DNA from: Chiloscyllium plagiosum
Lineage: Eukaryota
Reading direction: 5' to 3'
DNA: 64,000 nucleotides
NCBI RefSeq assembly: GCF_004010195.1
Contig: NC_057718.1
Location: 44,361,341-44,425,340 of the forward strand
Shown here: positions 4,040 through 60,843 of the stretch, in pieces
Position numbering within the stretch: position 1 is the stretch's first letter
Layout of the letters: every line of letters begins with the position of its first letter
Notes under the pieces: model-generated
Databases searched by the model: none
What the model saw: only the letters and a program-made list of their open reading frames with translations
Told to the model about the DNA's origin: nothing
Program-made: the position numbers and the translations under genes

Positions 4040-4780
4040 GTCACAGAAACCAGTCGGAAACAAATTTGATTCACTTTATGTGAGATGCAGAATGCAATGC
4101 GTAGAGAAAAGACTGTAAGTCACAATGTTTCAGCTGTATGCTGAAGACTTATGCCCCTGACTTAACCGTGCCTTTAGCTAAGCAGTTTCAGCACACCTGG
4201 TACACTGGAACTTACCATATGAATGAGAACTTTGCCAAGTTATATCCTGTCTACAAAAAAGTACGACAAATCCAACATGACCAAAGACCATCACATCAGT
4301 CAACCGCATCTGCCAGCAAAGTAAAGTAATTTTTTCACAATAGCACTTGCATAACAATTTTTTTTAGCTGATGCTCAGTTAGGGATCTGCTAGGATCACT
4401 CATCTCCACATCTCATTATAGCCTTGTTCCAAACTCGGGCACTCAAGTTGAATTCTGTGGTGAGATTAGAATGACTGCCTTTGATATTACGACAACATTT
4501 GGGCATAAATGAGCCCTTGATGGGAATCTATGGAAACTGGGTGGAGTCATATTTAGTACAAAGAAAAAGGGGTCTGATTTTGAAGGCTAATCATCCAAAT
4601 CCCAGGATGTTGTTGCAAGAGTTTCTGAGGGCAGTGCTGTTGGGCCAACCATCTTCAGCTGCTTCACCAGTGATCTTAGCTCCATCATAAGGTCAAAAGT
4701 AATGATGTTCTCTGTTTGTGTAACATGCAATTTCATTTGCAACAGCTCAGATAATGAAACTGTCCATGTCCGGCGATTAT
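4040..4780 (+). mobile_element. Decayed LINE RT fragment (second CR1/L2-group family)
   Basis: LKTYAPDLTVPLAKQFQHTWYTG...YPVYKK; related pieces at about 15900-16220, 22780-23240 and 39070-39130 (-). Confidence 0.65.
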
Positions 4781-7349
4781 ATCATCATCCCTCTCATTAC
4801 TTCCTTGTCAATATAAAGCTCAACTGCTTTGATCATCCCAATATTTAATTAAAGGAATTTTCACCTAATTCAGAACTGCATTGCAGAGCAAGCAGCCTTA
4901 CTACTCAGAGAGTGGAGGATTTGAGACATCTGGTGGAGAGGTTTAGCTGGGTGTTGATGAGTACACACAGAAATTGGTATCTTGTCTATGGATGATGTTG
5001 TCAGTATTATGACAATAGTGAAAATATAATACTGAACTGGAATCAGTGCCAAAAATAACATTTACAGACAGATAGCAAAGTGGGTGGAAAATTAATGGAT
5101 GGACTCTAATGTAGTCCTAAAATCTACTTAAAAGCCTGTGTAATTGTGAAAAATTTACTTTACCCTTTCTGCATACTAAGAAGAAAAGTTGAACATGATG
5201 ATAATTGCAGTGAAAATTTCTTTGTCACATAGAGTAGAAAACTGTTTGGCATTTGCTAGCAAGAGCACACTGTCAGCATCTGTGATCACATTGTTCAATG
5301 ATGTCAACCCCTGCTCCAAGGTGAAAACCTTTGCCCTTATCAGGGGTAACAAAAGCTATGCTTAAGAGTGGGTAAATCTTATAAGCTCTAAGAAGAGTCT
5401 TTGGTGTTTGTGACCAGCTTCAGAGATCCGGAAATTATTTTAACAATGTTGCCCAAACAACTATTAGTCCCAATGTTTTATTTCCACAAATATTATGTTC
5501 CTTCGTTTTTTTTCAGTAGTACTCTGTGTCATCACAGATTTCTTTATGAAGCAGGTACCAGCAAATAATTTGTGTTACCATGAGTTTCAGGCAATGCCTA
5601 TAACCAGTAGTTGCCCTGACCAGGACACTCAAAACAATTTGTTTCCATGCACTGTTCACCAACATGACATGCTTCTTATTTGTTAAAAGACAATTTATGG
5701 TTTGTTATGATGCAGTGTTACTTCCCTCAAGGTTACTGCAGTAGCAATCATTATACTCTAATATCAGCAGTTGAAGTCTGAGGCCATTATTGCACACAAG
5801 AGGTCACTTTTGAGCCCATGGTAAATAGTGTGATGATTCTGCAAGGATATTACATTTGCAATATGTTTTATTATATTTTGGCTAAGCCATCTGTCAGTAC
5901 ACAAAGAATTGCATTCAATCGGTATTAGTAGGACAAAAAGCAATAAATAGTGAAAGCATTTGACATCAGAAAGCAATAGCCAGTTGCTTCAGCTGTTCAA
6001 TTCCAGATGTGAATTAACTGGTGAAAGGTGTCTGCCTGCATCTTGAAAATGTGTGCTTGTCTGATAATTAGTGACATGAAATACCTCTGCTGCAAATCAT
6101 ACCCATATCTAGTTTTAAAGCATATTTTCAAACATTATTTCACTCATGTAGTTTGGTAAAGCAGTATTATGGAATTTTACAGCACAGAAACAGTGTGCTA
6201 CTTGAAGCAGGTGTCTTGTGTTGCTCAATTGTACAGGCCTCATTAAAGGGTCAAAGAATTTAGCAGGCCTCTTCGCCAGTTTTCTGATGGTTTGGTCTGT
6301 TATTGCATTGAACTATTAATATAAACTTGACCTAGGCAGCAATTCACATTCTATTTCAGTTAAATGTACTTTATATATATTGCATAGTAATTCATTTGAC
6401 TGTCACATTTTCTCTTTTTCTCACCAATTAGTCTCAATCATCACTCATAGAATAAACAGCACAAACTGAATTTTACTAAAAATGTAAATTTTAGTGAGTT
6501 TTCTGAAGGGTTTCTCTCCAGGAGCACTAGTGAGAATTGTCACTTCATTTTCCAAAGATCAGCTCCTTACCCACGCATCACATTGCTACAGTGCCCCACT
6601 CTTCTTCTCTCTCATGGGATTCATGGTACTTTTAAACAGCTATGCACCAGGTTAACCATTTCCAGTCAGGAAATGCCCTTCATTGTGCAAATAGTGTGAG
6701 GGGAACCAAAAACCAACAATCCTTGTGGCACTAACCTGGTATTGCTGACACTTAATAGCGATACAGATGCACATTTGTAAATGCCACTCATTGGTGAGAT
6801 TCTCGACTTGTCATTCAAAACTTCGTTAAAGGATTGGACTTTTATCTCTCAGTGTTGAGAATCTAACTTCTGTTGATCTCACATTATTTTCCCAACTGAT
6901 TCTCCAATGCACACAACGTTCAGGGACTGGAAAGATTCGGCTATTCTTTTCTAAGCTGCTAAGAGTGTATGCTTTTGTAAGATGGTTCTGTTTTAAACTG
7001 TCTTTTTCAGTTCAATGTAAAATGGAACATTCAAAACGGTGAGGTGATCTCCTATTAGTTCTGCTCAATGATTAATCATAAGCCAATGTGACCTGGTTGT
7101 CATCAGAAACTGTATACCTTGGTGAAGCCCTATTACCTACTTGAACATTTTAAAATTCAAACTTATCTTTCAAAGCTTTTGGTTCCTACAGAAATTATAA
7201 CAAACTCATGATCTTCAGAAAGCTAGAAAATAATACTTTTCAGAAGATGTTCAGAGAAACATCTGTCTGTTTTTAAGGCAAGAAGTATAGATCCATCACT
7301 GCTCTATCAGCTGGATTCAGAATTTCTGTGGGAATTATCGAGTAATTGA

Positions 7350-27102: not shown

Positions 27103-30100
27103 TAGAACATAGGACATTACAGCGCAGTACAGGCCCTTCAGCCCTTGATGTTGCGCCGACCTGTGGAACCAATCTGAAGTCCATCAAACGTACACTATTC
27201 CATTATCATCCATATGTTTATCCAATGACCATTGAAATGCCCTTAAACTGGTGAGTCTACTTGTGTTGTAGGCAGTGCTTTCCATGCCCCTCCTACTCTC
27301 GGAGTAAAGAAACTACCTCTGACATCTGTCCTATATCTATCACCCTTCAATTTATAGCTATGTCCCCTCGTGCTAGTCATCACTATCTGAGGAAATAAAC
27401 TCTCACTGTCCACCCTATTTGATCCTCTGATTATCTTACATGTTTAATTAAGTCGCCTCTCAACCTTCTTCTCTCTAACGAAAACGGCCTCAAGTCCATC
27501 AGCCTTTCCTCATAAGACCTTCCCTCCATACCAGGCAACATCCTAGTAAATTTCCAAAGCTTCCACATCCTTCCTATGATGCGATGACCAGAACTATACA
27601 CAATATTCCAAGTGCGGCTGGACCAGAGTTTTGTACAGCTGCAGCATGACTTGTGGCTCTGAAACTCAATCCTTCTACCAATAAAACCTAACACACCATA
27701 TGCATTCTTAACAACCTGGATGGCAACTTACAGGGATCTATTTACATGAACAGTGAGATCTCTCTGCTCTTCTACACTACCAAGAATCTTATTATTAACC
27801 CAGTACTCTATATTCATGTTGCACCTTCCAAAGTGAATCACCTCATACATTTGCACATTAAACTCCATTTGCCACCTCTCAGCCCAGCTCTGCAGCTTAT
27901 CTATGTCCCTGTGTAACCTGCAACATCCGTCAGCACTATACACAACTCCACCGACCTTAGTGTCATTCACAAATTTACTAACCTTCCTTCTACACCCTCA
28001 TCTAGGTCATTGATAAAAATGACAAACAGCAATGGCCCCAAAACAGGTCCTTAATGTACTCCACTAGTAACTCAACTCCAGGATGAACATTTCCCATCAA
28101 CCACCACCCTGTCTTCTTTCAGCTCACCAATTTCTGATCCAAACCATTAAATCATCCTAAATCCCATGCCTCCATATTTTATGCAATAACCTACTGTGGG
28201 AACCTTGCCAAACACCTTACTGAAATCCATATACACCACATCAACTGCTTTACCCTCATCTATCTGTTTGGTCACCATCTCAAAGAACTCCATAAGGTTT
28301 GTGAGGCACGACCTACCCTTCACAAAACTGTATTGGGTATCCCTAATCAACTTATTCCTCTCTAGATGATTATAAATCCTATTTCTTGTAATCTTTTTCA
28401 ACACTTTATCCACAACTGAAGTAAGGTTCACTGATCTATGAATACCAGGGTTATCTCTACTTCCCTTCTTGAACAAAGGAGCAACATTTGCTATCCTCCC
28501 ATCTTCAGGCACCATTCCTGTAGTCAATGAAGACATAAAGATCAAAGCCAAGGGCTCTGCAATCTCCTCCCTGGCTTCCCAGAGAATCCTAGGATAAATC
28601 CCATCTGGCCCAGGGGACTTACCTATTTTCACATGTTCCAGAATTGCTAACACCTCCTATTGGTGAACCTCTAGTAACCTGTATCTCTGTATTCTCCTCG
28701 ACTACATTGTATTTTTTCTAGTGTGAATACTGAGGAAAAATATTCATTTAGCACTTTCCCTAACTCCTCGGACTCCACACACAACTTCCCACTACTATCC
28801 TTGACTGGCCCTATTCTTTCTCTAGTTATTCTTTTATTCCTGATCTACAGCTTTAGGGTTTTCCTTGATCCTATCTGCCAATAATTTCTAATTTGCCTTC
28901 CTGTCTCTTCTTAGCTCTCTCTTCAGGTCTTTCCTGGCTAACTTGTAACTCTGTAACTGAGCCTTCCTGCCTCATCCTAACATAAGCCGCCTTCTTCCTC
29001 TTAACAAGAGATTCAACTTCTTAGTAAAGCACAACTCCTTCGCTTGACACTTTCTCCCTGCCTGACAGGTACATACTTAGCAAGGACACACAGCAGCTGT
29101 TCCTTGAATAAGCTCCAACTTCAGTTATGCCCATCCCCTGCAGTTTCCTTCCCTATCCCAAGCATCCCAAATCTTGCCTAATCGCATTGTAATTGCCTTT
29201 CCCCCAGCAATAACTCCTGCCCTGTGTTATATACCTATCTTTTTTCATCAGTAAAGTAAACCTAACCGAATAGTGGTCACTATCACCAAAGTGCTCACCT
29301 ACCTCCAAACCTAACACCGGGCCTGGTTCATTACCCAGTACCAAATCCAATGTGGCCTCGTCCCTTGTTGGCCTGTGAACATACTGTGTCAGGAAACCAT
29401 CCCACACACATTGGACAAAACTGACTCATCTAAAGTACTCAAACTATAGTATTTCCAGTCAATATTTGGAAAGTTAGCGTGCCCCATAACAACTACCCTA
29501 TTCCTCTCACTCCTATCCAGCATCATATTTGCTATCCTTTCCTCTTTATCTCTGGAACTATTTTGGAGGCCTATGGAAAATTCCCAACAGGGTGATCTCT
29601 CCTTTCCTGTTTTTAACTTCAGTAGATGAGTCCTCAAACTTCCTTTTTGCGACAGTTATGCTGTCCTTGACTAACAATTCCACACCTCCCCCTCTTATAC
29701 CATCTTCTCTGTTCTTACTGAAACATCTCATTTCCAGAACCTGCAACAACCATTCCTGTCCCTGCTCAACCCATGTCTCCGAAATGGCCACAACAGTGAA
29801 GTCCCAGGGACCAACCCATGCTGTAAGTTCACCTACTTTATTTCAGATGCCCCTGGAGTTGAAGTAGACACAATTCAAACTACCTTCCTGCCTGCCAGTG
29901 AACTCTTGTTACCTTGAAACCTCATTTCTGACCTCACTACTCTAAACCTCCCCGACACTGGAACTACAACTTGGGTTCCCATCCCTCTGCTGAGTTAGTT
30001 TGAACCCTCCCAAAGAGCATTAGCAAATTCCCCCCCCCCACAGGATATTGGTACCCCTCTGGTTCAGGTGAAGACCATCCTGTTTGTTGAGGTCCCATCT

Positions 30101-31290
30101 ACCCCAGAATGAGCCTCAATTATCCATGTATCCGAAACCCTCCTTCCTGCACCATCCCAATAGCCACATGTTCAACTCCTCTCTCTCCCTATTCTTCACC
30201 TCGCTAGCATGTGGCATGGGCAACAAACCAGAGATAACAACTCTGTTTGTTCTAGCTCTAAGTTTCCACCCTAGCTCCCTGAATTTCTGCCTTAAATTCC
30301 CATCCCTTTTCCTATCTATGTCGTTTGTGCCTATATGGACCACGACTTGGGGTTGCTCCCCCTCAAGGATCCTGAAAGTATGATCCGAGACATCACGAAC
30401 CCTTGCACCTGAGAGGCAACACACCAACCGTTGAGTATCTCTCATTCCCACAGAACCTCCTATCTGTCCCCCTAACTATGGAGCCCCAAGTGACCAATGC
30501 TCTGCTCATCTCCCCCTTCCCTTCTGAACAACAGGGACATACTCTGTGCCAGAGATTTGTACCCCATGGCTTACCCTTGGTAAGTCGTCCACCCCCCCCA
30601 CCCCCCAACAGCATCCAAAACGGAATACTTGCTGTTGAGGGGAACGGCCACAGGGATTCCCTGCATTGCCTGCCAGTTCGCTTTCCATCCCATCTGTCTT
30701 TTTCTTGTACCTGAGGTGAGACTACCTCCCTGTAATTCCTCTCTATAACCCCTTCCACCTCCCAAATGATCCAAAGGTCATCCAGCTCCAGTTCCCTAAT
30801 GCGGTTTTTGAGGAGCTGGAGTTGAATGCACTTCCCACAGATGCAGTCAGCAGGGACACTAGTGGTGACTGTTACCTCCCACATTCTGCAGGAGGAACAA
30901 TCAACTACCCTCACCTCCATTCCCACTATACTAAATTCCCAAATAGACTGTAGAAAAATAAAGATTTTTTTAAAATCTAGTTTTCTTACCAATCCGGCAT
31001 ACAGAACTTTTTTTTTGGTTAAAGGAGGAGGATGGGTGGGAGACACTACCTGAATAGTGTTTTGGATAACACAACCACCCTAATATATTACCTAACTATT
31101 CAGCAGTCCCGTGTCCGCTCCTGCTCAGCGTGCACTCCGCCTATTCACGAGGTAAGTATTTAAATCAGTGACTCACCTTCCCATCAGCCCCCGGTCAACG
31201 CTCCCGCTCTTCCTGCTGCTGAAACAAAAATGGAGGGCACCGACGCTCAACGTAAGTATTTAAGTCAGTGACTCACCTTCTTCGTGTTAA
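27103..31290 (-). mobile_element. Near full-length CR1 LINE (~4.2 kb), degenerate
   Basis: 5'UTR about 31290-30925; ORF1 zinc finger CSSCRMW...CICGKC, zipper, SGNH esterase (GSIVRG, VVHIGTND); ORF2 APE endonuclease (AISETW, SDHY) and RT (KSPGPDGIYPR, VDVVYMDFSK); many stops and frameshifts. Confidence 0.95.
31152..31280. repeat. 29-bp direct repeat at 100-bp spacing in the CR1 5'UTR
   Basis: GTAAGTATTTAA(A/G)TCAGTGACTCACCTTC at 31152-31180 and 31252-31280. Confidence 0.9.
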
Positions 31291-38621: not shown

Positions 38622-39519
38622 TCTGTTTCCATGCTGTACATCTCTATGACTCTAAGTGGCCTAGCAAACCAGCCATTTATCGAATAAAACCTAACAGACA
38701 ACTAGGCACTGGCACATCGAATCAAGATATTTCTACAAAAGACATCCTGCGCCAAAGTTTGGAAATCTTCCTCAAACTAATTAAACACCACAGTGATACT
38801 GTCAGATTTATAGGTTTGAATATACAAGACTCCTCCTTCACCATTCCTGAGTAGGTCCTGGTGGGAGTCTCTGGGAACATCAAAATGGACTCTAGATCCA
38901 CAATATTTTACGGTATCAGATTATACAAGAGCAAGAAAACACCTTGCTGATTACATCCTGTTACTGTTCTCCAGGCGGTGAATGTTAAAAATTATTTGTA
39001 AGAAACACTGACAACAAAGAATTACTAAAATGTTAACGAGGAGGTAGATTATTTTTTAAAAAGTGTTTTTTAGGTATGGTTGTTGCTGACTGGGCCAGCA
39101 TTTATTGTCCATCCCTAATTCCTCCTTGATCTGTATTGCTTGATTTATTGTAGTCATATGTACATAAATACAATGAAAAGCTTTGTTTGCTAGCAGTACA
39201 GACAGATAGATCATTGTAAGGACATATAGAGCATGGGATGCTTAGACAATGAGGCATGCAGATTACACTGCATAGGAAGTGCACAAAGCAATCAACATTA
39301 ACAGATCAATGTTATTTGAAGTTATTTGTTAATCTAATAAGGGCATGGCAGAAATTGTTCTTGAACCTGTTGGTGTGTTAGTTCAAGCTTCTGTACCTTC
39401 AGCCTGATGGAACACATTAGCAGGGTGGGAGAGGTCTTTGATGACGCTGGCAGCCTTTCCTTGGCAATGAGAAGTGTAAGTGGAGTCCATGTCGTACTCC
39501 TCAGCAGAAATCTGGCAGG

Positions 39520-41579: not shown

Positions 41580-42312
41580 GGATCATGAACTGCAACTTTG
41601 TAATTTGGAAAACTTACAGGTGATGGCACACCCATGTGCCTGCAACATGCGAGAAGTGTGGTTGAAGGAGCTTTACAGAATTACTGCAATGCATCATGTT
41701 GATACACGCTTATGCACCACTGGTGGAGGGAGTGAATAATTAAACTACTCAATGTGAAGCTAATCAAACAGGCATTGCTGTGATAATTTGCAATGTGCTG
41801 GGCCTCTTGCTGAGATATTTATATCATCGATAGTCACAGAAGACTGGAGCTTGACAGTGGTGCCACTGTTTAAGAAGGCCGGTAAAGACAAGCCAGGGAA
41901 CAATAGACCGGTGAGCCTGACCTCAGTGGTGGGCAAGTTGTTAGAGGGAACCTGAGGGATAGGATGTACGTGTATTTGGAAAGGCAAGGACTGATTAGGG
42001 ATAGTCAACATGGCTTTGTGCGTGGGAACTCATGTCTCACAAACTTGATTGCGTTTTTGAATAAGTAACGAAGAAGATTGATGAGGGCAGTGTGGTGGAT
42101 CATGAACTGCAACTTCGTAATTTGGAAAACTTACAGGTGATGGCACACCCATGTGCCTGCAACATGCGAGAAGTGTGGTTGAAGGAGCTTTACAGAATTA
42201 CTGCAATGCATCATGTTGATACACGCTTATGCACCACTGGTGGAGGGAGTGAATAATTAAACTACTCAATGTGAAGCTAATCAAACAGGCATTGCTGTGA
42301 TAATTTGCAATG
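41580..42312. repeat. 216-bp direct duplication (41580-41795 and 42097-42312)
   Basis: Identical by eye except aactttg / aacttcg. Confidence 0.95.
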
Positions 42313-46723: not shown

Positions 46724-47303
46724 TCACAAACTGTGGTCCTGACAGGAAACTTCAACCTTCTTGTGGCGAGGAGAAGTGGCTCCTTTTGTTGGTGATTGTG
46801 AGGGTGCACCATGTGGCTCATTGCCCATTTCAGGACCATTTGGGCAGGATGCCAACGGCTGAGCTACAACAGTCTTTTTCCTGCTGAGAAACCCTCCTTC
46901 AAAAGTATTTTTCTTCTTGTTTTCAATTTTGTCAGTGTCTTCATCCTGCCCCTTTTTCTTGAAGTCAGCCAGACTCTCACTTGCTTTCAGAATCTCTGGC
47001 GCCCCATCCAGACTTCTTGCTCGTGTGTCAGTCACCTGACTCTTCCTGTCATTAGTGCTACATTCAGTGGCTCCAAATTTCTTTCCTTTTAGCTCACCTT
47101 CTGTCTGTATTGAAGAATCACACTCAGAAGCAATGCCTCCTTTATCCAATACGTTTTTACTGAATGTAAATGGCTGGAAGTCTCGATAACTGTGAAAGCT
47201 TTCTGTACGCCTTGCTCTTGCAAGCAGTGGGCTCTCCCTATATGGTCTAACAGAACCATATGTTGCAGTTTCATGAAGAGTATCAGTAGTTTGAAGCTGA
47301 AGA
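46724..47303 (-). CDS. KCTD3: KCTD3 terminal coding exon
   Basis: ctcag|T CTT CAG CTT CAA... LQLQTTDTLHETATYGSVRPYRESPLLARARRTESFHSYRDFQ...SPRHKKVEVSCQDHSL*. This tail and the USH2A synteny favour KCTD3 over its paralog SHKBP1. Confidence 0.95.
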
Positions 47304-47519
47304 CTGAGGAAGGATACAAGAAAATCAGATTTTTACTGAGTAAAATTAAAATGGTGAGTGTTAAAAACATTACCAATAAAATGTCAATTAAAATCAGTTT
47401 TTTGTTATTAGGTTGCTGTCAATTTTTACTCAATTACAGAATGTCCATGGCTCAGTGCATAGCAGACTTCTTCTGAATCTAGAAGCTCTGGGTTCAAGTT
47501 TCATTCTAGGATATGTTGG

Positions 47520-48875
47520 CCATGGAAGATAACAGATTTTACTGCCTTCAACAACAAGTTTTCAGAATGGCATGTTGCTTCCCTGGTGCCAGGACCAAAG
47601 ATATCTCTGACAGGGTAGAGAATATTCTCAAAAGGGGAGCAGGACCAGCAGGAGGTCATTGTACACATTGGAACTAACAACATAGGAAGGAGAAAGGACG
47701 AGGCTCTGAGGAAAGGCGATGGGAAATTAGACAGGAATTTAAAAAGTAGGTCATCCAGAGTAGTAATAATGGGATTACTCCCCGCACCACTAGCTAGTGA
47801 GAGTAGGAATAGAATAGGGCAGATGAATGCATGGCTGAGGAGTTAGTATAGGGGAGATGGATTCACAGTTCTGGATCATCGGAATGACCTCTGAGGTAGA
47901 CGTGACCGGCATGTGAACGACGGATTGCATTGGAACCGGACCAGGACCACTCTATCGGCAGGGTGATAAGCTAGAACACCTCGGCAGGATTGCGACGTTA
48001 GAGGTGGGTGTGTGCACAGGTGTGGGTGGGGGGGGGGNNNNNNNNNNNNNNNNNNNNNNNAGAGTGAGCAAGGAGATCAGTCTAAGACTGGTACAGCTGG
48101 GAAAGGGAGCAAATCAAACAAACATTCAGGGTTGGCAGAAACAAAGCAGAGAACAAGGTAGGATTGATAAATTAAGCTGTATTTATTTCAACGGAAGAGG
48201 CCTAACAGGGAAGGCAGATGAACTCAGGAAATGGTTGGGAACATGGGTCTGGGATACAGAAACATGCCTCAGGGATGGACAGGACCGGTGGCTTAATATT
48301 CCGGGGGTATGGATGCTAGAAGAACAATAAAAAGGGGGCAAGAGACGAGGGGGAGTGGCATTTTTCATTAGGGATAAATTACCCTGTCCTAAGGGAGGAT
48401 ATTCCTGGCAGTACATCCAGGGATGTTATTTGGGTGCAACTGAAAAATAAGAAAGGGACGGTCACCTTATTGAAATTGTACTGTAGTCTCCCCAATAGTC
48501 AGTAGGAAATTGAGAAGCAATTTTGGAAGAAAATCTCCGTTATCTGTAAGAATAGTAGGGTAGTAACGGTAGGGGATTTTAACTTTCCAAACATAGGCTG
48601 GCACTGCCACTGTATTAAAGATTGGGATGGAGAGTAATTTGTTAAGTGTGTACAAGAAAATTTTCTGATTCAATACAGGAGTAGGAGCAAATCTTGACCC
48701 ATCCTTGGGAAATAAGGTAGGGCAAGTGATGAAGGTATCAGTGAGAAAGCACTTTTGGGCCAGGGATCATAACTCTATTAGTTTCAAAATAGTGATGGAA
48801 AAGGACAGACCAGATCTAAAAGTTAAAATTATGAATTGGAGGAAGGTCAATTTTGACAGTATTAGGCAAGAACTC
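47520..48875 (+). mobile_element. CR1 internal fragment (ORF1 esterase end plus ORF2 endonuclease) in the last KCTD3 intron
   Basis: VIVHIGTNNIG; CIYFNGRGLTGKADEL...TETCL; RDHNSISFKIVMEKD...NWRKVNFDSIRQEL. Confidence 0.85.
48038..48060. other. Assembly gap (23 N)
   Basis: Run of N after a poly-G stretch. Confidence 1.
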
Positions 48876-49104
48876 ATTTTAAACAGAAAGCAGGGACCCA
48901 CACCAATATGAGAGGGAAATGTCCAAATAAAAATACGTTTCACAATTAATCAAAAAACCTGTAATAAATGCTGTGACAGCACTTTTTACATGATAAAAAA
49001 AAATCTTCAAAAAGAATCAAGAAAAGCTGCATCTACACTAACTGCTGGGACTTCTCTTGCTGTTAAAAGATAGCAAATAAAATAGTCTGTTTGATAACCA
49101 TTAC

Positions 49105-49243
49105 CTTGAGTTTGACTCCCGCAGTTTAGTATGCTGTACTAATGAGGCAGCTGGACTGATGTTGGGAGTAGCACAGCGGGATGTGCTCAGATCACACTGA
49201 TCCAGCAACTTCAGCAGCTCTTCTTCCGTGGGGCCTCCAACAT
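49105..49243 (-). CDS. KCTD3: KCTD3 penultimate exon
   Basis: 139 nt. [45 protein letters not shown]. Confidence 0.95.
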
Positions 49244-50264
49244 CTGAAAGAAATCAATTATGTTGTGAACCACATATACCCTTTCACCAGCAGTGGATTA
49301 AATTAGTTATTTGTTGTTATGAATATGGCACCGAAATAGACAATTTCACAACTGCATGTCCTGCCTCACTTTTAGCTCGAGTTCAAACTTTAATGCGATA
49401 CTATTATTTGTATTTACTTCAGCTATGATTATAGAGATGTAGATGTATCGCGAACAGCGGAAAGATTTTAAGATCACTGCACTTACATAACGATTATATA
49501 CAGGGCAATGAACTATAGTAAAGACTGCCATTAAAATTAATCCAGCAATACCCATAACAGATTGACACTTGTGTACCCAAGTACATACATGTTTGTACAT
49601 AATGCCAAATAACACTAAATAGTCTATAGTGCATTTGTATCATTTTCCACATTAAAATGCTATAATTACCAATTGTTGCCAAATGGTAGTATAATCCAGT
49701 TCAGATTTTTCGAAACCATAAAGTATCCAAAGTCCGAGCTTGTCACTTACAATTCTTCTAGAACCACAATTGCATTACATCTTGTAATTCCTTATGGAGA
49801 TCCATTTGTCCTAATAGTGTCTCACTGGACAATATCTAATACATGAAATGGAACTCAGTAATAGCTATTTTTTTTTAAATCAAAAACTGAACTTCCCCAA
49901 ACGATCTGACATTCCCTATTTAATTTTGGCTGCCAGAGCAAGTAGCTTGAGTTAGAAAATGTCTTGATTCACTGGACCAGCCTTGGTGTAAAGTGTCATG
50001 GTACACACAATGTTTGCTCCAGGTTCAAGGGGAAGGAGCTGTTTGTGTGCACATGTGCAAGGGGGAGTCAGAGCATCACCAGCACCTGAGACAGACAAGT
50101 ATTGGGCGGGGGCTGATTAGATACCTAGCTCAGTACTATGGGACTTTGTTTCAGTGCTGCCAACGTTAGAAGATTTTAGGCTGTCCAGCCATCACACTTC
50201 ACATCCTCTCAATACTCTCCCAACTACCTCACATTTCCCCTTATACCAATACCAATTCAAGTAT

Positions 50265-50468
50265 GAGGTTGGTTTAGCTCAGTTTGCTTGCGAAGCAGTG
50301 TGATGCCAATGGCGTGGATTCAATTCCCGCACCAGATGGTGTTATCATGAAGGACTGCCTTTCTCAGCCTCTCCCCTTATGTGAGGTATGGTGGCCCTCC
50401 GATTAAATCATCAATCGTCTATCTCTAATAAGACAACAGCCCTACGGTCTGATAAGATAATAGCCACA
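50265..50468 (+). mobile_element. tRNA-derived SINE of a second family
   Basis: TTAGCTCAGTT A-box-like and GGATTCAATTCCC B-box-like motifs, followed by a non-tRNA body. Confidence 0.6.
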
Positions 50469-51542
50469 CAATACCAATTCAAATCCTATTGCACTCTCCA
50501 GGGCATCTCAGCCTCGCATATGCTCCCCATTGCTCCTCACACCTACACCCCATAGCCACGGCAGGAAAAACTGGAAGTGCGAGGAATCCTTTAGTTAAGC
50601 TCTGTCCACTATTTCTAAATTACACTTGAGTTGTTCTAATTGCCCTAAACTCTAGTGCTTTGAATATAGTAGTTAAATCATTGCACAGAACTGCATCATT
50701 CATCCAATACATGTCAATCGTTCAGATAATGACCTAGACCCAGCATGCATTGATGTTTGTCAATAAATCTTCAAAGGTTGTTAGAATATCAGCTATGTCA
50801 CTGGATATCAGCTAATCACCCTAATATTGAAGAAATATTTGCTCTTTTTTGTAGAACATCCCTGGAGCTTGCTGGTAGGTAAAAACTGCAAAGTTTGACA
50901 AAAAAATCACATTTGTAGAAATTTGATGTTTAAAAATAAAATTATTTAGACTGAGCAACATCAGAATTTCTTTGTAATTTCAGATACCTTAACACCTTAG
51001 TTCCTGAAGTTAAATATTGACTAACAGAAAAGAATTTAATATCCAGATTACAAACTGAATACAATAAGCCATAAAACATAAGACATGGGAGCTGAAATAG
51101 GCCATTCAGGACTACTCTGCCGTTCAGTCATGGCCGATATGTTTCTTAACCCTGCTTTCTTCCTGTAACTTTGAACCAGAATTTACTTATCTCTGTATCA
51201 AATACACTCAATGAGTTGGCCTCCACAGTCATCTGTGAAGAACACAAGTACATTACAACTTGTTATTTTAACATGAGCTATCCACTACATTTTTCAGAGT
51301 GTTTAAACAGGTTGTTAAATATACAGCTATTTCAAAATACACTCAATTTTTCATCTTTCATTTAAAGGTATCTGTACAAGCAATACAAGAAATTATGGTT
51401 TTTGACGTTAATTATAAAATTTAACCTTAGAAAGAGCCCTGATCTCACCAGGCACCATTAGTAAAACATATTAAAAGAAAGATAATGCATCTCTAAACTG
51501 CAATGATTCTGTTCAGAGTTGCAACAGACTTTTTAAACTCAC

Positions 51543-51727
51543 CCTTCTCTTCCTTTTTGTTTACCATGTCCATAGCAGTCGTCAAGTCCCACATCTGAAT
51601 GCTTCCATTTCCATGGCCTGTGAAGAGATACCTCCTTGGTCGAGAACCCATTCGACTCGAACCTTCACATTCCCTCACAGTAAATGCAGTTATTGTCATG
51701 CCATCTACTGCCTGGATCTCACAAATC
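51543..51727 (-). CDS. KCTD3: KCTD3 exon
   Basis: 185 nt, after a 101-nt intron. [61 protein letters not shown]. Confidence 0.96.
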
Positions 51728-51828
51728 CTGGAATCAAAAATACCAAACAAGCAGAAAGTATAATATAATTAGAAGTTAACTATAATCATTCCCAATGATA
51801 AATGAAAACAAAAGGGTGAATATTTTAC

Positions 51829-51925
51829 CTTTTCCCTGTAGAGGAGAAGCGAACAAACAACTTGTTAGTAACTGGAACAACTTTCTGGATGAAAACCTGT
51901 TGGTCATCTCTCTCCCCAAACGGTC
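51829..51925 (-). CDS. KCTD3: KCTD3 exon
   Basis: atag|GA CCG TTT...AAA AG|gtaaa, 97 nt. [31 protein letters not shown]. Confidence 0.95.
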
Positions 51926-51974
51926 CTATTAAAATGCACAAAAATAAATGAAAAACTCAGCGTTATAAGTGAAC

Positions 51975-52430
51975 AGAATCACTGAAATATTATAGCATAG
52001 ACCTAGGCCATTCAACCCACTGTGTCTGTACCAGCCATCCAACTAAGCACCAGGACTTAGTACTATTGTCCTGCCTTTTCTCAGTCTTGCATAATTGATT
52101 AGAAAAATAATCATCCAAAGTCCTCTTCAATTCCTCAATTGAACCTGCCTCTGCCAAACATCCAGGCAGTGCATTCCAGTCCCGAACCACGTGTGAAAAG
52201 GTTCTCTCATATTACATCCGCTTATTTTTTAATTCACTTTAGATCTGAGCACTCATGTTCTTAATACTTATGAGGGCACAGTTTCTTCCTATTTACTCTC
52301 TCTAGTCCGGTAATGATTTTGAAAACTTCTCAGATCACTTGGCTTCTTCTCTCCAAGGATAAGAGTCCAACATCTATGATTCTACGATCTCGAATCTATC
52401 TTCATAACTGATGTCTCTTGAAATCATTCT
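51975..52430 (-). mobile_element. Decayed CR1 3' end
   Basis: VRDWNALPGCLAEAGSIEELKRTLDDY (CR1 ORF2 C-terminus). Confidence 0.7.
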
Positions 52431-52604
52431 TGCACACCATAATAGTTCCTAGAGCCCAAAATATATCTAATTATCATTACGCAGATGATTTTGGATACAC
52501 TTTGCTACTTTTAACTTTCGTCACAAGTATGCTATTGGATTCTGTATGGAAGTCCATATACACATTCTGTCACCACTCCAGAAGCCTCCAATAAATTAAG
52601 CACA

Positions 52605-53450
52605 ATTGGTGGTGTAGTGGACACATAAGTTGTCCTCAGAGGGGTCAATGGGCTGAGCAATGGCAGATGGAGTTTATTCAAGATAAATGTATGGTGCTAC
52701 ATTTTGGGAGGGCAGGACTTACATTCTTAATGGTACGGTCCTAGGGAGTGTTGCTGAACAGAGATACCTTGGAGTGAAGGTTCACAGTTCCATGAAAGTA
52801 GACAGGATAATGAAGGTGTTTGTTATGCTTGCCTTTATTGATCAGTGTATAGAGTATTGAAGCTGGTTAGTCATGTTGCGGCCTTGTAGGACATTGGTCT
52901 GGCCATTTTTCAAATACTGAGTTCAATTCTGGTCTCCCTGCTATACGGAAGATGTTGTTAAACTTGAAATGACTCAAGTGATTGACAACAATGTTGCCAG
53001 GGTTGGAAGATTTGAGCTATAGGGAGAGGCTGAAAAGGCTGGGCCTATTCTCCCTGGAACCTCAGAAGCTGAGGGGTGACCTCATAGAAGTTTATAAAAT
53101 TATGAAGTGCACAGATAAAGTGAATAGTCAAGGACATTTCACCGAAAGAGGGGAGTTGAAAACTAGAGGACACAGGTTTAGAATGAGAGGGGAAAGATTT
53201 AAAAGGGACCAAAGGGGCAACTTTTTCAAGCAGAGGGTGGTGCATATACAGATTGGGCTGCCAGAGGAAGTGTTTGAGGCTGATATAATTATACCATTTA
53301 AAAGGCATCTGGATGAGTATATGAATAGGAAGGGTTTGGAGGGATATGGGCCAAAGTTTGGCAAACAAGACTAGATTAGATTCAGATATCTGGTCGGCAT
53401 GGAGGAGTTGGACCTGAGAGTCTGTTTCTGTGCTATACATCTCTAGGACT
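52605..53450 (+). mobile_element. 5'-truncated CR1 LINE
   Basis: MLPGLEDLSYRERLKRLGLFSLE...RGDLIEVYKIM...TRGHRF, followed by the 3' tail. Confidence 0.9.
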
Positions 53451-54362
53451 CCAATTTCCATTTTATGCTCCATGCTAGTTTCTTAAATAGCCCACTTTTT
53501 TTTTCCATGTGACAACTAATTCTGTCTCAAAAACCTTTCTAGAAGCTTCCCCCCTACTGAACTTAAAACGTCCGATCTGTAATTGAGGAGCTTATTCTTG
53601 CAAACATTTTTTGAACAGGAGTGTAAAATTCAAAATATAACAAAGTCAGCTCTTAACAGTTTAACTTGTTGATTAATAGTTAATTCATGCAGTGTGAAAA
53701 TAATCATACTATTTCCAAAGGTCAAAACACAAACGAACACAAGGAATGCTATGTAACTCATCTAAATTCAAATATTTAGGATTCCCAATCAGACAGACAC
53801 TGCATCTGACAGATTTTTAAATACAGGGTGTTTGCACAATTAACACATCTAAGTTTTCTTTGTGTCTGTTGATCACTGTGTGAACCAAATGAACAATGTT
53901 TTGATTTATAATGAATTTTGTACTTTGTGATAAAAATCAGGTGGAAAGTGAAGCCATCAGCACAACGCTACCAACACAAACTCACACTGTTCTCCTGCTG
54001 AACTTCCATTTTGACTTGCTATGTCAGAATATCTTAAGGCCTTTTGAAAGAAATGACCCATTAGCAAAATACAGTAACTTCTATAGCTTTACATCCACTA
54101 AAAAACTGAGTTCAATTTTAATTCATTTTTGACAATTTAATAAATGATTTGACAAAAACATTCTAAAAATGCTTATTTCAGGTTTTTGCTGTAAAGGAAG
54201 AATCCCAATGTTGTAAGCAAGACAAAGAGTGGGGAAGCAAGATGATACTAAGTATTACAAAATATTGGAAATTAGCATCTCTAAATAACACATGTGATAC
54301 TTTCAGTTATATTTCCTAGTATTTTTAATTAAATAGTTTTACCTTAAAACATGAGTATTTAC

Positions 54363-54518
54363 CTATATCATTTCCAGCTGCATAGCTTCCATGACTCTCT
54401 GTCTCCTCTAATGAAAGTATTTTGAATGAAGCTAGTGGAGTAGAACCTGGCTGAGTGGAGATCATGCCTCTGAAACGAGTGACTGTCCAAGTTCTCACAT
54501 GGTTATTATCAGCACACA
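54363..54518 (-). CDS. KCTD3: KCTD3 exon
   Basis: 156 nt. [51 protein letters not shown]. Confidence 0.96.
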
Positions 54519-56654
54519 CTGCAGGATTAAATCATATCAAGTCATTTCCAAAATTCAGAAGCAAAACAGGAAGGCAAAAATATTGTGATTCATTCTGTGA
54601 ATATAGAGAAATATATGGATATGCAATATTTATTAAATGTAAACACAAAGGCCAGTATAAGAACAAAACTGCATGCCTTTCATATAGTTCATATTAGCAA
54701 TCAGAAGAGAACAAACCCAATTTACAAAGAAAGTAAGTGTACCAACTCGGACGTATAAGTGAAAAATGCCTCTGGTCAATATTTCTTGCAAAATAGATTT
54801 TTTTTTCAAATGCACTATAAATACACACCTGTCAAATAACAAACACAGCAACTCCTCTCCAAAGCTTAAATCATAACCCATTTACAATTTTGATATATAG
54901 AATTTTCATTAGTATAAAAGCATAAAAATGGGTAACTCTCACAGTAACACAATGGAAGGAATATCGTAGTATTTGTAGTTTATGAAGATCGCTGACATCA
55001 CTGATCTATGTAACAGGATTCAAGTGAATAGCGGGTTCAAACGTGGGAAAAACATAGGGTTTGAAGCAAAAACAAAAAGGAACTGATCTTCTTATTTGAA
55101 GGTCACTGGAGTGGTGGAATTAAGTCATAAATGTCACAATCGTGGATCAGAATCCCAAAGTACTGTGAACGTTTTTACCTTGCAATTCAAAAATGGTTTT
55201 TAAAAGAAAGCCATCACAGCCAAAAATAGCTGACAATGTAAATTAACTGGTTGGCTGGAGCAAGTGATCCACAGAATATCACAGCTGCAGATGCAAAGGG
55301 AACTTTAAACTGCAGCCCTTCAAATGGACGAAGAGGCAAGTCTGAAACAGACTGGACTGTAATCTCTTGCCACTACAAAGATAACAAGGGCCTGATGACT
55401 CTCTGCTCAATAGCAAACCATGCCCAGTAGATTCTCTCAAACTACAGACACATTTTGTTATTTTTCACTTTTGAAGAATACACAAGTCAAGGGTTAAAAA
55501 AAAAGTTTCAATCCGAGTAGAGTGTGCTTATAGGAATGAACACGAAATTGTGTAACAGCCTGGATTTGAGCGTGAGCATGCTTTGAAGGTCAGGGTTGAA
55601 GGACCCTCCCCTAGACACCCTTGTATTGCAGCTAATCTCTCTCACTTCCAGTGCTACAAACCAGACAAAAATAAATAGGACAAAAGGATTCACTCTCACT
55701 CTGAATGCTGGAATTCAATCAATCATAGTCGAAATAACTCAGAACTGCATAATCGCAACTAATCTGCAAAACTAAGGATTGTGAAAGTGACTGCTCACAT
55801 CTACCAAGGTCAACAATGTCAGTAGCCACCACTGCAATGGCTAGAACATTGAACTATCTACATTTCGTGAACAATTCAGATAGGTTTTAATTTCCATCTT
55901 TTTGGAGTCGCACCTTATTTCTAACCTGTATGAATAGTATTACTAATCCTTTTGCCGTTTAATAATTAATAAACTCAACCTTTGTTAACACAAGGAAGCC
56001 TGGTTAATTGGCTCCTTCTAGATCCAAATGGGCATGTATTTTAGGAGAAAGGTAACCACAACGGAGAGAATTCTTTTAAATTAACTTTGTTGTGACCGAG
56101 GGGATAGATGAATAAAAAAAAGGAGCCAATTCATCCTTTCTCAGTTAGGAGCTTAACTGTTTGGGGGTATCTGCCTGAAACCTAAATGAATTAATGAACC
56201 TGCATGGGTATGGCCATAATGCTAGAGGAGATCACCAAAGTGGATAACATCAGATATTTCAAGTAAATTAGATTGATGCACTTCTGAAAAGAGAAGATAT
56301 TAATAGATATGGACACATGTGGCATATGTTGGGGATGGGGGGAGCTGGCTAGTCCAACTAAGAGAATACTCCATTCCCTAAAGTATCTGATTATGATCTT
56401 CACTTGATTTCTCACCATCCTATTTTCTATGGAATTAGGTTTTCTCATTTGTTTTCCCATCAGGATATCACATATTTTGTATCATTTGTAATGGGGAACA
56501 ACTGAAAATTTAAAAGCACAGACAAGCTACCAATCCTAAACTAATATATAAAAGAAGGACTGTAAAATTTAATTGGGAAGAAATCAGTACAGCACAAATT
56601 AATAAAAACATTAAAAAAAACTCTCTCAAATCTAAATTAAATTCACAAGCTTAC

Positions 56655-56825
56655 CAGACACCAGATATTTTTCAGACAGCATGATTTTAGTTACTGGGCT
56701 TCGGTGAACTGTGAAGGTCTGGAAGAGTTGGGGACCTGACCCTACAGTTTCAGGATGTTGGACTATTACACGCACTGCACCAGAACTGGTTCCATATGCA
56801 ATCTCAATCCAATTGCCACTGACGC
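56655..56825 (-). CDS. KCTD3: KCTD3 exon
   Basis: 171 nt, AG/GT bounded. [56 protein letters not shown]. Confidence 0.96.
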
Positions 56826-57229
56826 CTATAAATGAGCAAAATATATTTAACAATCATACATTAACTGAAGTCTCCAAATGTAATATATGTTTAGACAGAA
56901 CAGATATCTTCCTTCCCCTTTTTACATTAGGCAACTGACATGCTGGGGTATAGCTTCAATACTCTGACAACCCAAGTAACCCTAGATAGTGAGTAGTGGA
57001 AAGTGTTTTGTTTATTAAGTATATTACAGTTGAGCCCAGCTTTGTCCACACCAACACACACATTTTCTTTAAAGGAGCAGAATGGGTAAGGATTAGGAGC
57101 TGGAATTGTGACTGATTTTAAAGTCAAGAATGCAGCAAACACAATAGCTTTACTTCTATTAACACTGCAGCTTATACGGGATCTTAGGATTTTGTTGTGG
57201 TTCTGTTCGCCGAGCTGTATATATTTATT

Positions 57230-57269
57230 GTAAACGTTTCGTCCCCTGTCTAGGTGACATCCTCAGTGC
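57230..57269 (-). ncRNA. Second minimal hammerhead motif (inverted pLTR; sense with KCTD3 pre-mRNA)
   Basis: Reverse complement reads GCACTGAGGATGTCACCTAGACAGGGGACGAAACGTTTAC. Confidence 0.65.
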
Positions 57270-58038
57270 TTGGGAGCCTCCTGTGAAGCGCTTCTGTGGT
57301 GTTTCCTCCGGCATTTATAGTGGCCTGTCCCTGCCGCTTCCGGTTGTCAGTTTCAGCTGTCCGCTGTAGTGGCCGGTATATTGGGTCCAGGTCGATGTGT
57401 TTGTTGATGGAGTTTCATTCAACAACCAGATATACGAACAAATCAACGGAACACCCATGGGCTCACCGATCTCGGGACCTAACATCCTCAGCGTTCCTTC
57501 TACCTATGTCATTGGTGCCAATGTGGACCATGACTTCGGGCTGCTCCCCCTCCCCCTCAAGGGCCCGGGAAACACGATCAGAGACATCACGTACCCTTGC
57601 ACCTGGGAGGCAACATACCAAACGTGAGTCTCTCTCGTTCCCACAAAACCGCCTATCTGTGCCACGAACTATCGAGTCCCCAATTACTACTGCTCTGCTC
57701 TTCTTCACCCTTCCCTTCTGAGTAACGGGGACAGGCTCCGTGCCAGAGACCTGAGCCCCGTTACCAGCTATCCTTAGTAGCCACACACGCAGACGACAAG
57801 CAACATGAATTCGACTGGGACAACACTACCATTATAGGGCAAGCCAAACAAAGAACAGCCAGGGAATTCCTAGAAGCATGGCACTCATCCACAAACTCCA
57901 TCAACAAACACATCGACCTGGACCCAATATACCGGCCACTACAGCGGACAGCTGAAACTGACAACCGGAAGCGGCAGGGACAGGCCACTATAAATGCCGG
58001 AGGAAACACCACAGAAGCGCTTCACAGGAGGCTCCCAA

Positions 58039-58078
58039 GCACTGAGGATGTCACCTAGATAGGGGACGAAACGTTTGC
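58039..58078 (+). ncRNA. Minimal type I hammerhead ribozyme motif in the Penelope pLTR
   Basis: GCA-CTGAGGA-T-GTCACCT(AGAT)AGGGGAC-GAAA-CG-TT-TGC: CUGANGA and GAAA cores, stem II, palindromic stem III. Confidence 0.7.
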
Positions 58079-58425
58079 AACAAAAATTTCCAGCTCCGCG
58101 AACAGAACCACAACAACGAGCACCCGAGCTACAAATCTTCACCCAAACTTTGAATCTTAGGATTTTTTTTCCGCAACCTTGATGGCAGCTGACCAATACA
58201 ATTCAATCTACCCTCACCATTTCTCTTTTCTGCCATTCTAGATTCATCCCATCAGCATTCCAATTTCCATAACATCATTTATTGCTTAGGAAAGTTATGT
58301 ATCCACTGGAGCCTCTTATACTGTCTGAGGTTTTGTCTGATAATCTGAACTGAACAAATGTTCAATCGCTTAGCATATAGAAATTTTAATTAGCAGACTA
58401 TATTGGTTATTGACAACGTACATAC

Positions 58426-58542
58426 TTGTCTTTGGAGTGAGGTACACACTTAATGCAGTGATGGCATCATTTGATGGATCATGATAAAGCTCCGTAACCA
58501 GAAGATCATTATCCTTCATCCTTAATGGGAACTTCTGCATGT
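58426..58542 (-). CDS. KCTD3: KCTD3 exon
   Basis: ctag|AC ATG CAG AAG...ACA A|gtatg, 117 nt. [39 protein letters not shown]. Confidence 0.96.
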
Positions 58543-58889
58543 CTAGAATACAGTGCAAGGTCACTCTTATTAATAATTAACGTACAATACTTTACGTATG
58601 AAAAATAAAACACAATCCAAATTTGGAGTAGATGTAGTATTTTAAACTTACAGTGTGGAATAGTTTGGAATAAGATACAGCGAAATCAATTGATGATTTC
58701 GTTTCAATGATTTTCTGCAATTTTACCAAATGTGATTTTCTGTGTCCCTCCCCAAGATACACAGACATAGGTTAACTCACGAACTTCTCATGAATCTCAA
58801 AAAGGGGAAAAATAAAACTTTTTTTCCTTGACTTTGACTGCTTTAGGCTGGTAAGCAACATATTTTGTGGTATGAATTGTTCCTTTTGA

Positions 58890-59350
58890 ACTGGACCTGC
58901 TCATATAGCACAAAAACAGACCCTTCGGTTCAACCAGTCCATGCCAAGCATAATCCCAAACTAAGATAGTTCCATCTGCTTCTTCCTGGCCCATATCCCT
59001 CCAAAGTCGTCCAATTCACGTACTTATCCAAATGTCTTTTAAATGCTATAATTGTGCCCCACATCCACCAGTTCCTCAGGAAGTTCATTCAACATGCGAA
59101 CCACTATGTGAAAAAAAAAGCCCCTTCTTTTTTAAATCTCTCTCCTCAAACTTGTGCTCCCTAGTCTAGAAATCCACATTCTAGAGAAAAGACAACTACC
59201 ACTAATCCTATCCATACCCCTCATGATTTTATAAACTTCTATAAGGTCACCTCTCAACCTCCTACGATCCAGTGTAAAAAGTCCTAACCTATCCAGTCTT
59301 TCTTTATAACTTAAACCTTCCATACCCTGCAACATCCTGGTAAATCTCTC
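58890..59350 (-). mobile_element. CR1 3' end
   Basis: RFTRMLQGMEGLSYKERLDRLGLFTLDRRRLRGDLIEVYKIMRG. Confidence 0.88.
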
Positions 59351-59551
59351 CCTCTCTGTCTGGGCCATAAAAAAAATCAACTGAATAAACAGTTCAGTAA
59401 TTATCTCACCAGGTAGCTGTTAGCTTAAGTCACATGTTTTACTTTAAATTCTGGTTTAACACAAATGCTAAAAACGTTTTGGACCCCAATAAAACAAAGA
59501 CACCTTCACAGAACAAAAAAAAACCCATTAAACTCTATATTATAACTATGT

Positions 59552-60040
59552 TATAGAGTCATACAGCACAGAAACAGACCCTTTGGCCCAATTCATCCAT
59601 GCTGATCAGGTTTCCTAAACTGAAATAGTCCCATTTGCCTGCATTTGGCTCATATCCCTCTGTCTTTCCCGTCCATGTACCTGCTCAAATATATTTTTTA
59701 ATATTATAATTACACTTACCTCACACCCTCTGACAGCTCGACCTATATACACACACCACCCTCTGTATGATAAAGTCACCCTTCAGGTCTCTTAAATCTT
59801 GTCCCTCTCACCTTAACCTACGCACTCTAGTTTTGGAATCCCTTACTCTAGGGGAAATACTTTGACCATTCATTTCATTTATCCCCCTCACGATTGTATA
59901 AACCTCTCAGCCTCCTACGCTCCTGGGGAAAAAAGTCAGACTATCCAGCCTCTTCATATAACTCAAACCCTCTAGTGTCTGTAACATCCTTGTAAATAGT
60001 TTTTGTATCCTTTCCAGTTTAATAACATCCTTCCAAAGCA
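59552..60040 (-). mobile_element. CR1 3' end
   Basis: Tail atagagtcatacagcacagaaacagaccc; body similar to 7350-7850. Confidence 0.8.
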
Positions 60041-60755
60041 GGATGCTTCCTAAAGCAAGTTCTCCAGTAATAATACATTATAAACCTTATTCACAAAAGC
60101 TAAATGCCAATCTTAGCAGTCGGATACAAACAGAAATGAGTCAAGTCATTGACAAGACAAAAATACAAGGTCAGAAACAAGCTAAGGTGGGTGTCATTAC
60201 ACTGCCAAGTAAATTTGTAGGTAATGGGTATTCTTGAAACCACAAATAATATTCAGATGAAACAGCAACTTTACTGCTACAATTAGACAGAAGGCACAGA
60301 ACACCTATACAGATGGAACTTCAGCATCTTTGGCAAGTCCCGGCAATACTTATACTGTAACCTCTACTATTGACCTCAAAGGGCCCTAATGATAGGTAAT
60401 TTAAAAGAGCAAATAAGTCAATTGTTTACAATCTTTCACCAAGTACATGAAAAAAAAGCAACGTTTCCTGGATGTGAGATGTTCATTGTGATGTTGCAAA
60501 TCTAATATTGATCATTACTACAACACATTCTACCAAACTATTCTGAATCATCTTATTTAGGAAAACTTCGGCTTTAAACTTGGATATCTCTTTTAACATT
60601 CTCTTTTCAGCACCTCATTAGTTTTTATATTTCTTGATGCTTTCATAATCTTTACAGATGCTTGACTTTTACCTTTCTTTTAATAAAAGCCTCTGCAGTC
60701 TCCTACCCACAACTTCAGGTAAAATATTTATCAATGGCTGATGACAGTTTCTTAC

Positions 60756-60843
60756 CTATATAATATATCGATCCATTGTTACAGCCCAGCAGAAGGAATG
60801 TTCCTGCAGTGTCGCAGCTGGTGATAGGAACAACCTCCTGCAC
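60756..60843 (-). CDS. KCTD3: KCTD3 exon (WD40 region)
   Basis: Minus strand tacag|GTG CAG GAG...TAT ATA G|gtaag, 88 nt. [29 protein letters not shown]. Confidence 0.93.

Follow-up and report, generated by a model that had tools for sequence, protein, structure and literature searches.

A chimeric Penelope insertion with an internal CR1-like LINE fragment in a shark KCTD3 intron, most likely a one-off copying or repair accident

A Penelope frame with foreign sequence in a KCTD3 intron

The chimeric Penelope insertion at 57181-58166 of the window (the whole 64,000-nucleotide stretch of Chiloscyllium plagiosum DNA analysed here) most probably arose from a single accident of copying or repair, of a kind already known. 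It is most likely not the new composite non-autonomous element proposed in an earlier note on this DNA: its copy number is at most in the tens, and a second copy of the composite was not seen in the reads and protein matches searched. We consider it an even call that this dead insertion of Penelope/Poseidon type exists in a single copy and acquired its middle through template jumps as its insertion was still under way. The product shows no sign of having spread. The insertion fills most of a 1.6-kb intron (56826-58420) of KCTD3, a gene on the minus strand, and within one 13-bp duplication (TSD) comprises, in order, an inverted arm, a short piece of Penelope reverse transcriptase (RT), an opposite-strand CR1-like piece, the end of the Penelope ORF, a second arm and a 37-nt tail (Table 1). 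All the parts that the earlier note had placed inside one 13-bp TSD (arms, 60 nt of RT motif, CR1 esterase and Penelope end) were present in the window; the tail and the hammerhead core in each arm are additions to it. The copy is dead, encoding nothing and with no activity left, because it has lost about 762 nt of Penelope sequence, the GIY-YIG motifs among them.

Read alignment covered 56300-57892 at 90% likeness in 4 of 22 runs. Runs X3 and X15 are contigs of organism A from two studies, X5 comprises contigs of organism B, and X19 consists of raw reads of organism A from a third study, of which about 4 in 100 were read.

Elsewhere in the window, eight KCTD3 exons (46727-60843, minus strand) cover about residues 310-825 of the shark proteins, with 95-100% identity for seven of the eight. 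A 216-nt direct duplication (41580-41795 and 42097-42312, 99.5% identical, 517 nt apart) is either a young local duplication or an assembly duplication. Thirty-three identical letters at 147-179 and 38622-38654, starting right after a 500-N gap, are probably a repeat end at a scaffold join.

Table 1. Features of the insertion and its surroundings (window positions).
Feature	Position	Strand	Basis or remark
KCTD3 exon downstream of insertion, 171 nt	56655-56825 (start also given as 56656)	-	100% to shark KCTD3 proteins
TSD, left copy, 13 nt	57181-57193	.	exact repeat
Left inverted Penelope arm, no tail	57192-57415	-	pLTR plus first 69 nt of next ORF
Five clustered near-private substitutions, left arm	57218-57231	.	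94-97% of X19 reads have one other letter
Hammerhead core pattern (CUGAnGA-stem II-GAAA), left arm	57237-57266	-	pattern match
Penelope RT piece, 63 nt, motif QINGTPMGSPISG	57416-57478	+	P0001 residues 92-112
Internal CR1-like LINE ORF1 esterase piece (predicted), 284-286 nt, no 3' tail	57479-57764	-	PDB, Pfam, homologue, read loose ends
Penelope ORF end to stop, downstream of GIY-YIG motifs	57763-58058	+	P0001 residues 367-463, 94%
Right Penelope arm (pLTR)	57893-58116	+	arm comparison
Hammerhead core pattern, right arm	58042-58071	+	pattern match
One-sided tail, 37 nt	58117-58153	+	right end only
TSD, right copy, 13 nt	58154-58166	.	exact repeat
KCTD3 exon upstream of insertion	58421-58546	-	shark KCTD3 protein alignment
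Older decayed esterase homologue	30290-30565	-	219/283 letters (77%)

The outer frame is an ordinary Penelope/Poseidon layout

The outer frame of the insertion has the ordinary, typical layout of a Penelope/Poseidon element. The 13-nt repeat occurred only twice in the 64-kb window, with a chance probability of ~5e-6 when freedom of +/-5 nt was allowed at each end; the first two letters of the left arm overlap it, and the two arms, 224 nt each, differ by 7 mismatches. An inverted pLTR arrangement, a one-sided 30-40-nt tail and a short TSD, described as the typical Penelope structure in the accessible portions of PMC3846280 and PMC8557442, were all found here. Compared by eye with the consensus built from the 1,697 loose ends that X19 reads show at 57192, the tail differed at 2 of 30 letters. 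Counted along the next ORF, the left arm stops at +69 and the tailed end at +106, and in the right arm this ORF has its ATG at 58048 and a stop as its fifth codon. For anole Poseidon, the available text of PMC11167929 describes a protein that cleaves and extends both strands, two reverse-transcription start sites inside the next ORF with the tail as the stretch between them, and an ORF that begins at hammerhead stem II.

The ATG sits at stem II of the hammerhead core pattern in both arms of the shark insertion, and a minimal PLE hammerhead in the pLTR with the ATG at stem II is described in PMC4209133 and PMC11167929. Rfam returned no hammerhead match in the arms, giving three chance snoRNA hits only, and the right-arm monomer folded no better than shuffles (z 0.33). 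PMC4209133 presents dimers as the likely active form of minimal PLE hammerheads. The five clustered substitutions of the left arm (P 6e-4 for the clustering) make those 14 nt TA-rich. An origin of the two arms from different subfamilies was considered and rejected, the window letters at these sites being present in at most 3-6% of reads. At 57218 the X15 flank contig ends in a letter that differs from the window, so the cluster may be allele- or assembly-specific.

Two collinear Penelope fragments enclose the foreign piece

A protein search with the Penelope ORF end matched 15 proteins among 337 candidates, the best being a Penelope-type protein of Chiloscyllium punctatum (P0001, 94%). Both Penelope pieces were collinear on P0001, where 57415-57477 aligned to residues 92-112 and 57765-58055 to residues 367-463, and on a fuller relative, P0012; the gap between them corresponds to 254 missing codons (about 762 nt). 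P0012 carries RVT_1 and a weak GIY-YIG match (E 0.008), and the retained ORF end starts just past this Pfam stretch (601-638 of P0012, against 639-697 aligned). What had earlier been called a GIY-YIG C-terminus is the end of the Penelope ORF, but without the catalytic motifs. Judged by its protein relatives, the family has RT followed by a C-terminal GIY-YIG in one ORF, with fragments only kept in the insertion, and it is on this architecture that we base the clade name Penelope/Poseidon. Pfam gave no match in either Penelope piece, and the 64-kb window held no second copy of the ORF end or of the RT piece.

The end of the Penelope ORF was also present in annotated shark isoforms (P0003, P0007, P0008, P0009 and P0014), namely of NT5DC1, MAP3K7, CUEDC2, a WBP2-like gene and one other, a sign that intronic copies may often be exonised or mis-annotated.

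The internal piece comes from a LINE ORF1 and lies on the opposite strand

Translated on the minus strand, the internal piece matched the 'ORF1-encoded protein' of PDB 4C1B (E 2.5e-8), which we take to be the zebrafish LINE ORF1 esterase, and matched Pfam Lipase_GDSL_2 weakly and below the cut-off (E 0.0039). It thus represents an SGNH/GDSL esterase homologous to a LINE ORF1 protein. The label CR1, as opposed to L2 or another esterase-bearing LINE, is an assumption shared with the earlier note, in line with shark LINE ORF1/ORF2 motifs. Read loose ends moved the limits from the earlier 57478-57765 (~288 nt) to those in Table 1. The piece carries four near-private alleles (57494, 57499, 57563 and 57569), and it was probably copied from a CR1 of an abundant family that had mutated beforehand. 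A homology to about 30310-30570 had been claimed and was recovered in the older homologue listed in Table 1, followed 1.6 kb downstream by an RT fragment of the same strand; as the donor, this copy was rejected as older, decayed and too distant at 77%. No match above 80% that could represent a local CR1 donor was found within the window, which extends only 6 kb to the right and contains two N gaps. Decayed CR1-like copies with an ORF1 esterase lie at 28147-31079 (minus strand, with an RT fragment) and 47501-48330 (plus strand).

The piece was rightly described in the earlier note as not a normal CR1 insertion: it is ORF1-internal, lacks the 3' end and stands in place of 762 nt of Penelope, and 833 X19 reads run on past 57764 into more CR1 sequence. 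A classical TPRT insertion of CR1 is not what was found, given the missing 3' tail and flanks that share only a 3-nt direct repeat (ACC, 57477-57479 and 57763-57765); the claim of no tail therefore stands, and that of no TSD is qualified by this repeat. The same repeat would speak for an ordinary CR1 insertion into Penelope, or into an already deleted Penelope, trimmed later by deletion. We find this scarcely credible, since an ORF1-internal piece would need the loss of kilobases of ORF2, the 3' end and Penelope sequence together, every letter of the repeat is already accounted for by the donors, and no 57478-to-57764 joint was seen among the 15 listed of 136 joints. In orientation the CR1 piece is antisense to the right-hand ORF, as had been claimed, but sense to the left arm, and antisense RNA is therefore not required.

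Junctions and read support

The left outer junction is backed by contigs from two studies: flank contigs of X3 and X15 cross the TSD and 23-24 nt of the left arm with 0 differences. This arm overlap is shorter than the 31-letter bridging rule, yet the match is perfect at the predicted base in both studies. The interior of the insertion, including the three inner junctions, is known from the assembly alone; none of the 24 pieces listed (the longest of 35,604) crosses an inner junction. The contigs of organisms A and B, in which a pre-insertion allele was looked for, give no resolved interior, and we did not count absent junction contigs in X5 and X15 as evidence of absence. Run X15 behaves like RNA, the 171-nt exon forming its own deeper contig (55 versus 9-20); its intron contig bears the left junction of the insertion.

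Word share in X1-X4 was 0.89-0.90, compared with a predicted 0.900 +/- 0.019 if every private inner word were missing and 0.965 if only junction words were. Because contig sets drop rare paths, these values neither confirm nor refute the interior; runs X6-X14, with word shares of 0.32-0.38, were left out of the evidence. An assembly artefact, in which the interior was mis-joined or gap-filled inside a real Penelope insertion, would explain a word share equal to that expected without private inner words and the non-window letter that ends the X15 flank contig, in a window with N gaps and at a class of inverted PLE insertions that assemblers find hard. However, a repeat mis-join cannot be driven by overlaps of 0-2 nt, two chimeric joins that preserve Penelope order and strand are unlikely by accident, and the absent words are just as well explained by the loss of low-frequency paths linking high-copy repeats, so that we consider an artefact very improbable.

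Raw reads outline the pieces that were joined. X19 reads of Penelope RT agree with the window over 57416-57478 and diverge at its two ends into ordinary RT sequence of Penelope (935 and 913), CR1 reads match as far as 57764, and 5,057 Penelope reads take up the match again from 57763. Inspected by eye, the arm and the RT piece meet bluntly, with 0 nt of overlap, and the CR1-Penelope junction has 2 nt (57763-57764); older copies point to an overlap of about 1 nt at the RT-CR1 junction. The two Penelope breakpoints have 3 letters in common, with a chance of about 0.05, and these letters and the 3-nt repeat around the CR1 piece are suggestive at most.

Copy number argues against a large composite family

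Single-copy depth in X19 lay between 0.23x (flank mean, with reads in 3 of 16 flank bins) and 0.5x, the latter for a genome size that we assume to be near 4 Gb. Scaled to this depth, there are about 18,000-39,000 young Penelope ends, about 1,900-4,100 RT-bearing Penelope copies and 3,100-6,800 CR1 copies (the last two at >=90% identity). The window letter at 57569 occurred in at most 5 of 1,331 X19 reads and that at 57499 in at most 17 of 1,081, background included, giving bounds of 23-51 and 54-118 copies, respectively, that hold if the near-private alleles came from the donor. A composite family is thereby limited to tens of copies; one copy fits, a large family does not.

A small family would arise if a Penelope copy elsewhere had already been patched with CR1 and was transcribed and mobilised in trans as a non-autonomous element. 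Such a pre-formed donor is compatible with low copy numbers and with the retention of the cis-acting end (pLTR, hammerhead core and tail), and PLE ends can mobilise intervening DNA in trans, as reported in the accessible text of PMC3846280. We nevertheless hold it to be quite improbable in view of the allele counts at 57569 and 57499 and of the balanced loose-end counts to the left and right of the RT piece; in a weak test, neither the 36 esterase hits nor the 15 Penelope hits included one that convincingly joined both sequences.

The insertion appears young

That the insertion is young, as the earlier note had held, is fairly supported. Observed-to-expected CpG was 0.75-0.76 in the arms and 0.64 in the CR1 piece compared with 0.24 in the flank, and no scattered near-private substitution occurred in about 399 nt of Penelope within the 40 of 108 difference rows listed, where the only near-private changes in Penelope parts were the five-site cluster. 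This argument takes the rows to be ranked by share, as we infer. The right arm and tail (261 nt, outside the read comparison) contain up to 4 further differences. Four near-private changes in 286 nt of CR1 against none in Penelope gave P 0.03, or 0.09 if the cluster is counted as one event. Intron divergence to organism B is ~3.6%, and zero Penelope substitutions would have P 8e-4 at 1.8% per lineage and 0.03 at half that rate. On the strength of this divergence and the Penelope and CR1 counts, the insertion probably postdates the split from organism B, with a CR1 donor that was already mutated.

A weak clue of sharing with the sister species runs the other way. One organism B contig contains a joint at 57207-57241 at a depth of 33.5, and the next flank contig computes to 33.5, so that organism B may, weakly, have the left arm at the same site. 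The window allele at 57723 was found in 0.13% of B contigs versus 79% of A reads; if the clue is right, B would share the arm while the CR1 alleles of the window are nearly absent from its contigs, and the patch would be later than the insertion. We rejected the depth-33.5 contig as proof of this, as single-copy depths of 30-40 are common (4 of 7 X5 rows shown). Minor alleles are also under-represented in contigs (57664, 1.8-4.6% there as against 18.5% in reads), and enrichment in A extends to Penelope alleles (57325, 57830 and 57851). Organisms A and B are dominated by different young Penelope and CR1 subfamilies (e.g., at 57723 and 57851), which suggests that both elements expanded separately in A and B after the split.

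How the patch may have formed

Template switching and repair-mediated capture, the two mechanisms put forward in the earlier note, are also our two best, although they are not separable from each other. Under the first, we postulate that the element's own protein would have nicked and primed both strands, producing the tailed right end and the tail-less left arm. A growing 3' end would then have left the Penelope template and returned 762 nt away, with about 286 nt of CR1 copied in between and pairing of 1-2 nt used for the jumps onto and off CR1. Most economically, top-strand synthesis would complete the left arm, copy 63 nt of the long bottom-strand cDNA, jump to a sense CR1-containing RNA (or CR1 DNA) and return to that cDNA; in this way a rightward-growing strand that started at the second nick would copy ordinary sense CR1 RNA. 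Alternatively, the first cDNA may have made both jumps via an antisense or DNA template. The polymerase could be the Penelope RT or a host repair polymerase, between which the sequence gives no distinction.

Formation at insertion is favoured because the frame matches the typical PLE structure, the overlaps are 0, about 1 and 2 nt with no CR1 3' end, a young copy leaves little time for a later break, and both donor families are abundant. Precedents in the accessible literature include L1 chimeras, in which pieces of opposite orientation were put down to second-end priming (PMC13174262), and inserts in rotifer Penelope ORFs, for which template jumps were proposed (PMC3846280). It is weakened by the need for two jumps in one event, by the position of the CR1 piece 63 nt inside the arm junction and not exactly at it, by the 3 common breakpoint letters, by the net deletion plus patch, which is a signature of later repair, and by the dependence of the young age on 40 of 108 rows; the weak B contig clue, if right, would date the patch later. 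Template jumping by a PLE RT was not found demonstrated in the parts of the PLE literature searched.

The second mechanism, which we consider possible but rather doubtful, is that a 5'-truncated Penelope (about 1.2 kb plus the inverted arm) inserted first and that a later double-strand break lost 762 nt, the gap being sealed by a CR1 fragment as an endonuclease-independent LINE insertion or class 2 templated sequence insertion (TSI). Collinear Penelope ends would follow automatically, the 3 letters common to the Penelope breakpoints would fit, and the arm is possibly common to organism B while the CR1 alleles are A-enriched. Features of such events were found here: the tail is absent, as is any TSD of at least 5 nt, and microhomology and a site deletion are present. 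The tail-less internal LINE fragment matches the descriptions available from PMC1920257 and PMC5110952, where deletions accompanied 18 of 21 endonuclease-independent L1 insertions and class 2 insertions measured 73-414 bp, respectively. On the other side, such events are rare, with 21 loci in a human-genome scan (PMC1920257), the copy looks young with both arms intact, and the B clue is weak, given thousands of Penelope copies in B and Penelope alleles that are also A-enriched.

Returning to template jumps at insertion, a bolder version would be that the second-strand polymerase, starting from the second nick, leaves its own cDNA, copies LINE RNA on 1-2 nt of pairing and returns, and that such central patches are a regular by-product in the shark lineage that now and then founds small composite families. 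This generalisation we regard as speculative and unlikely.

Relation to known systems and significance

Penelope ends that capture foreign sequence, retro-insertions of chimeric make-up and breaks patched with LINE fragments are already described; a Penelope-CR1 chimera was not found described in the literature searched, of which coverage was incomplete and limited to main texts. As far as the available text of each source goes, the insertion resembles EN+ Penelope/Poseidon elements (PMC3846280, PMC8557442, PMC11167929) in several respects, namely a TSD, a copy truncated at its 5' end with an inverted arm beside it, a tail (37 nt) confined to one end, a hammerhead core pattern where the next ORF begins and RT placed before GIY-YIG, but differs in that the middle of its ORF is swapped for an unrelated LINE piece. 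Penelope captures in Adineta vaga (PMC3846280) likewise hold unrelated sequence between pLTRs in one TSD, with ORF inserts ascribed to template jumps and internal microhomology deletions, whereas the shark cargo is an opposite-strand LINE ORF1 fragment, accompanied by a loss of 762 nt, in a vertebrate, and an empty allele was not seen. L1 chimeras formed by template switching or twin priming (PMC13174262) similarly combine the sequences of two RNAs in one TSD, with opposite orientation attributed to second-end priming, but in the shark case a PLE is the host, and the foreign piece sits inside it, bordered by Penelope sequence at each end. Endonuclease-independent L1 insertions and class 2 TSIs (PMC1920257, PMC5110952) have in common with the shark insertion an internal piece of a LINE, a few hundred bases long and without a tail, as well as short microhomology and a deletion; they are defined against a known pre-insertion allele, whereas the shark site is a young retro-insertion itself and is known without such an allele. 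General background is given in the accessible parts of PMC9977147 and PMC2666801.

As a dead intronic insertion, this single locus matters little, and its value is as a data point. The steps of Penelope transposition after priming are described as not yet validated in the available text of PMC11167929. With some 18,000-39,000 young Penelope ends in the genome, a count of foreign patches is feasible. Should foreign patches in young insertions lie predominantly in sense orientation relative to the tail-less arm, this would show that synthesis from the second nick is RNA-templated, and such a strand bias, if true, would explain how Penelope elements pick up host and LINE sequence.
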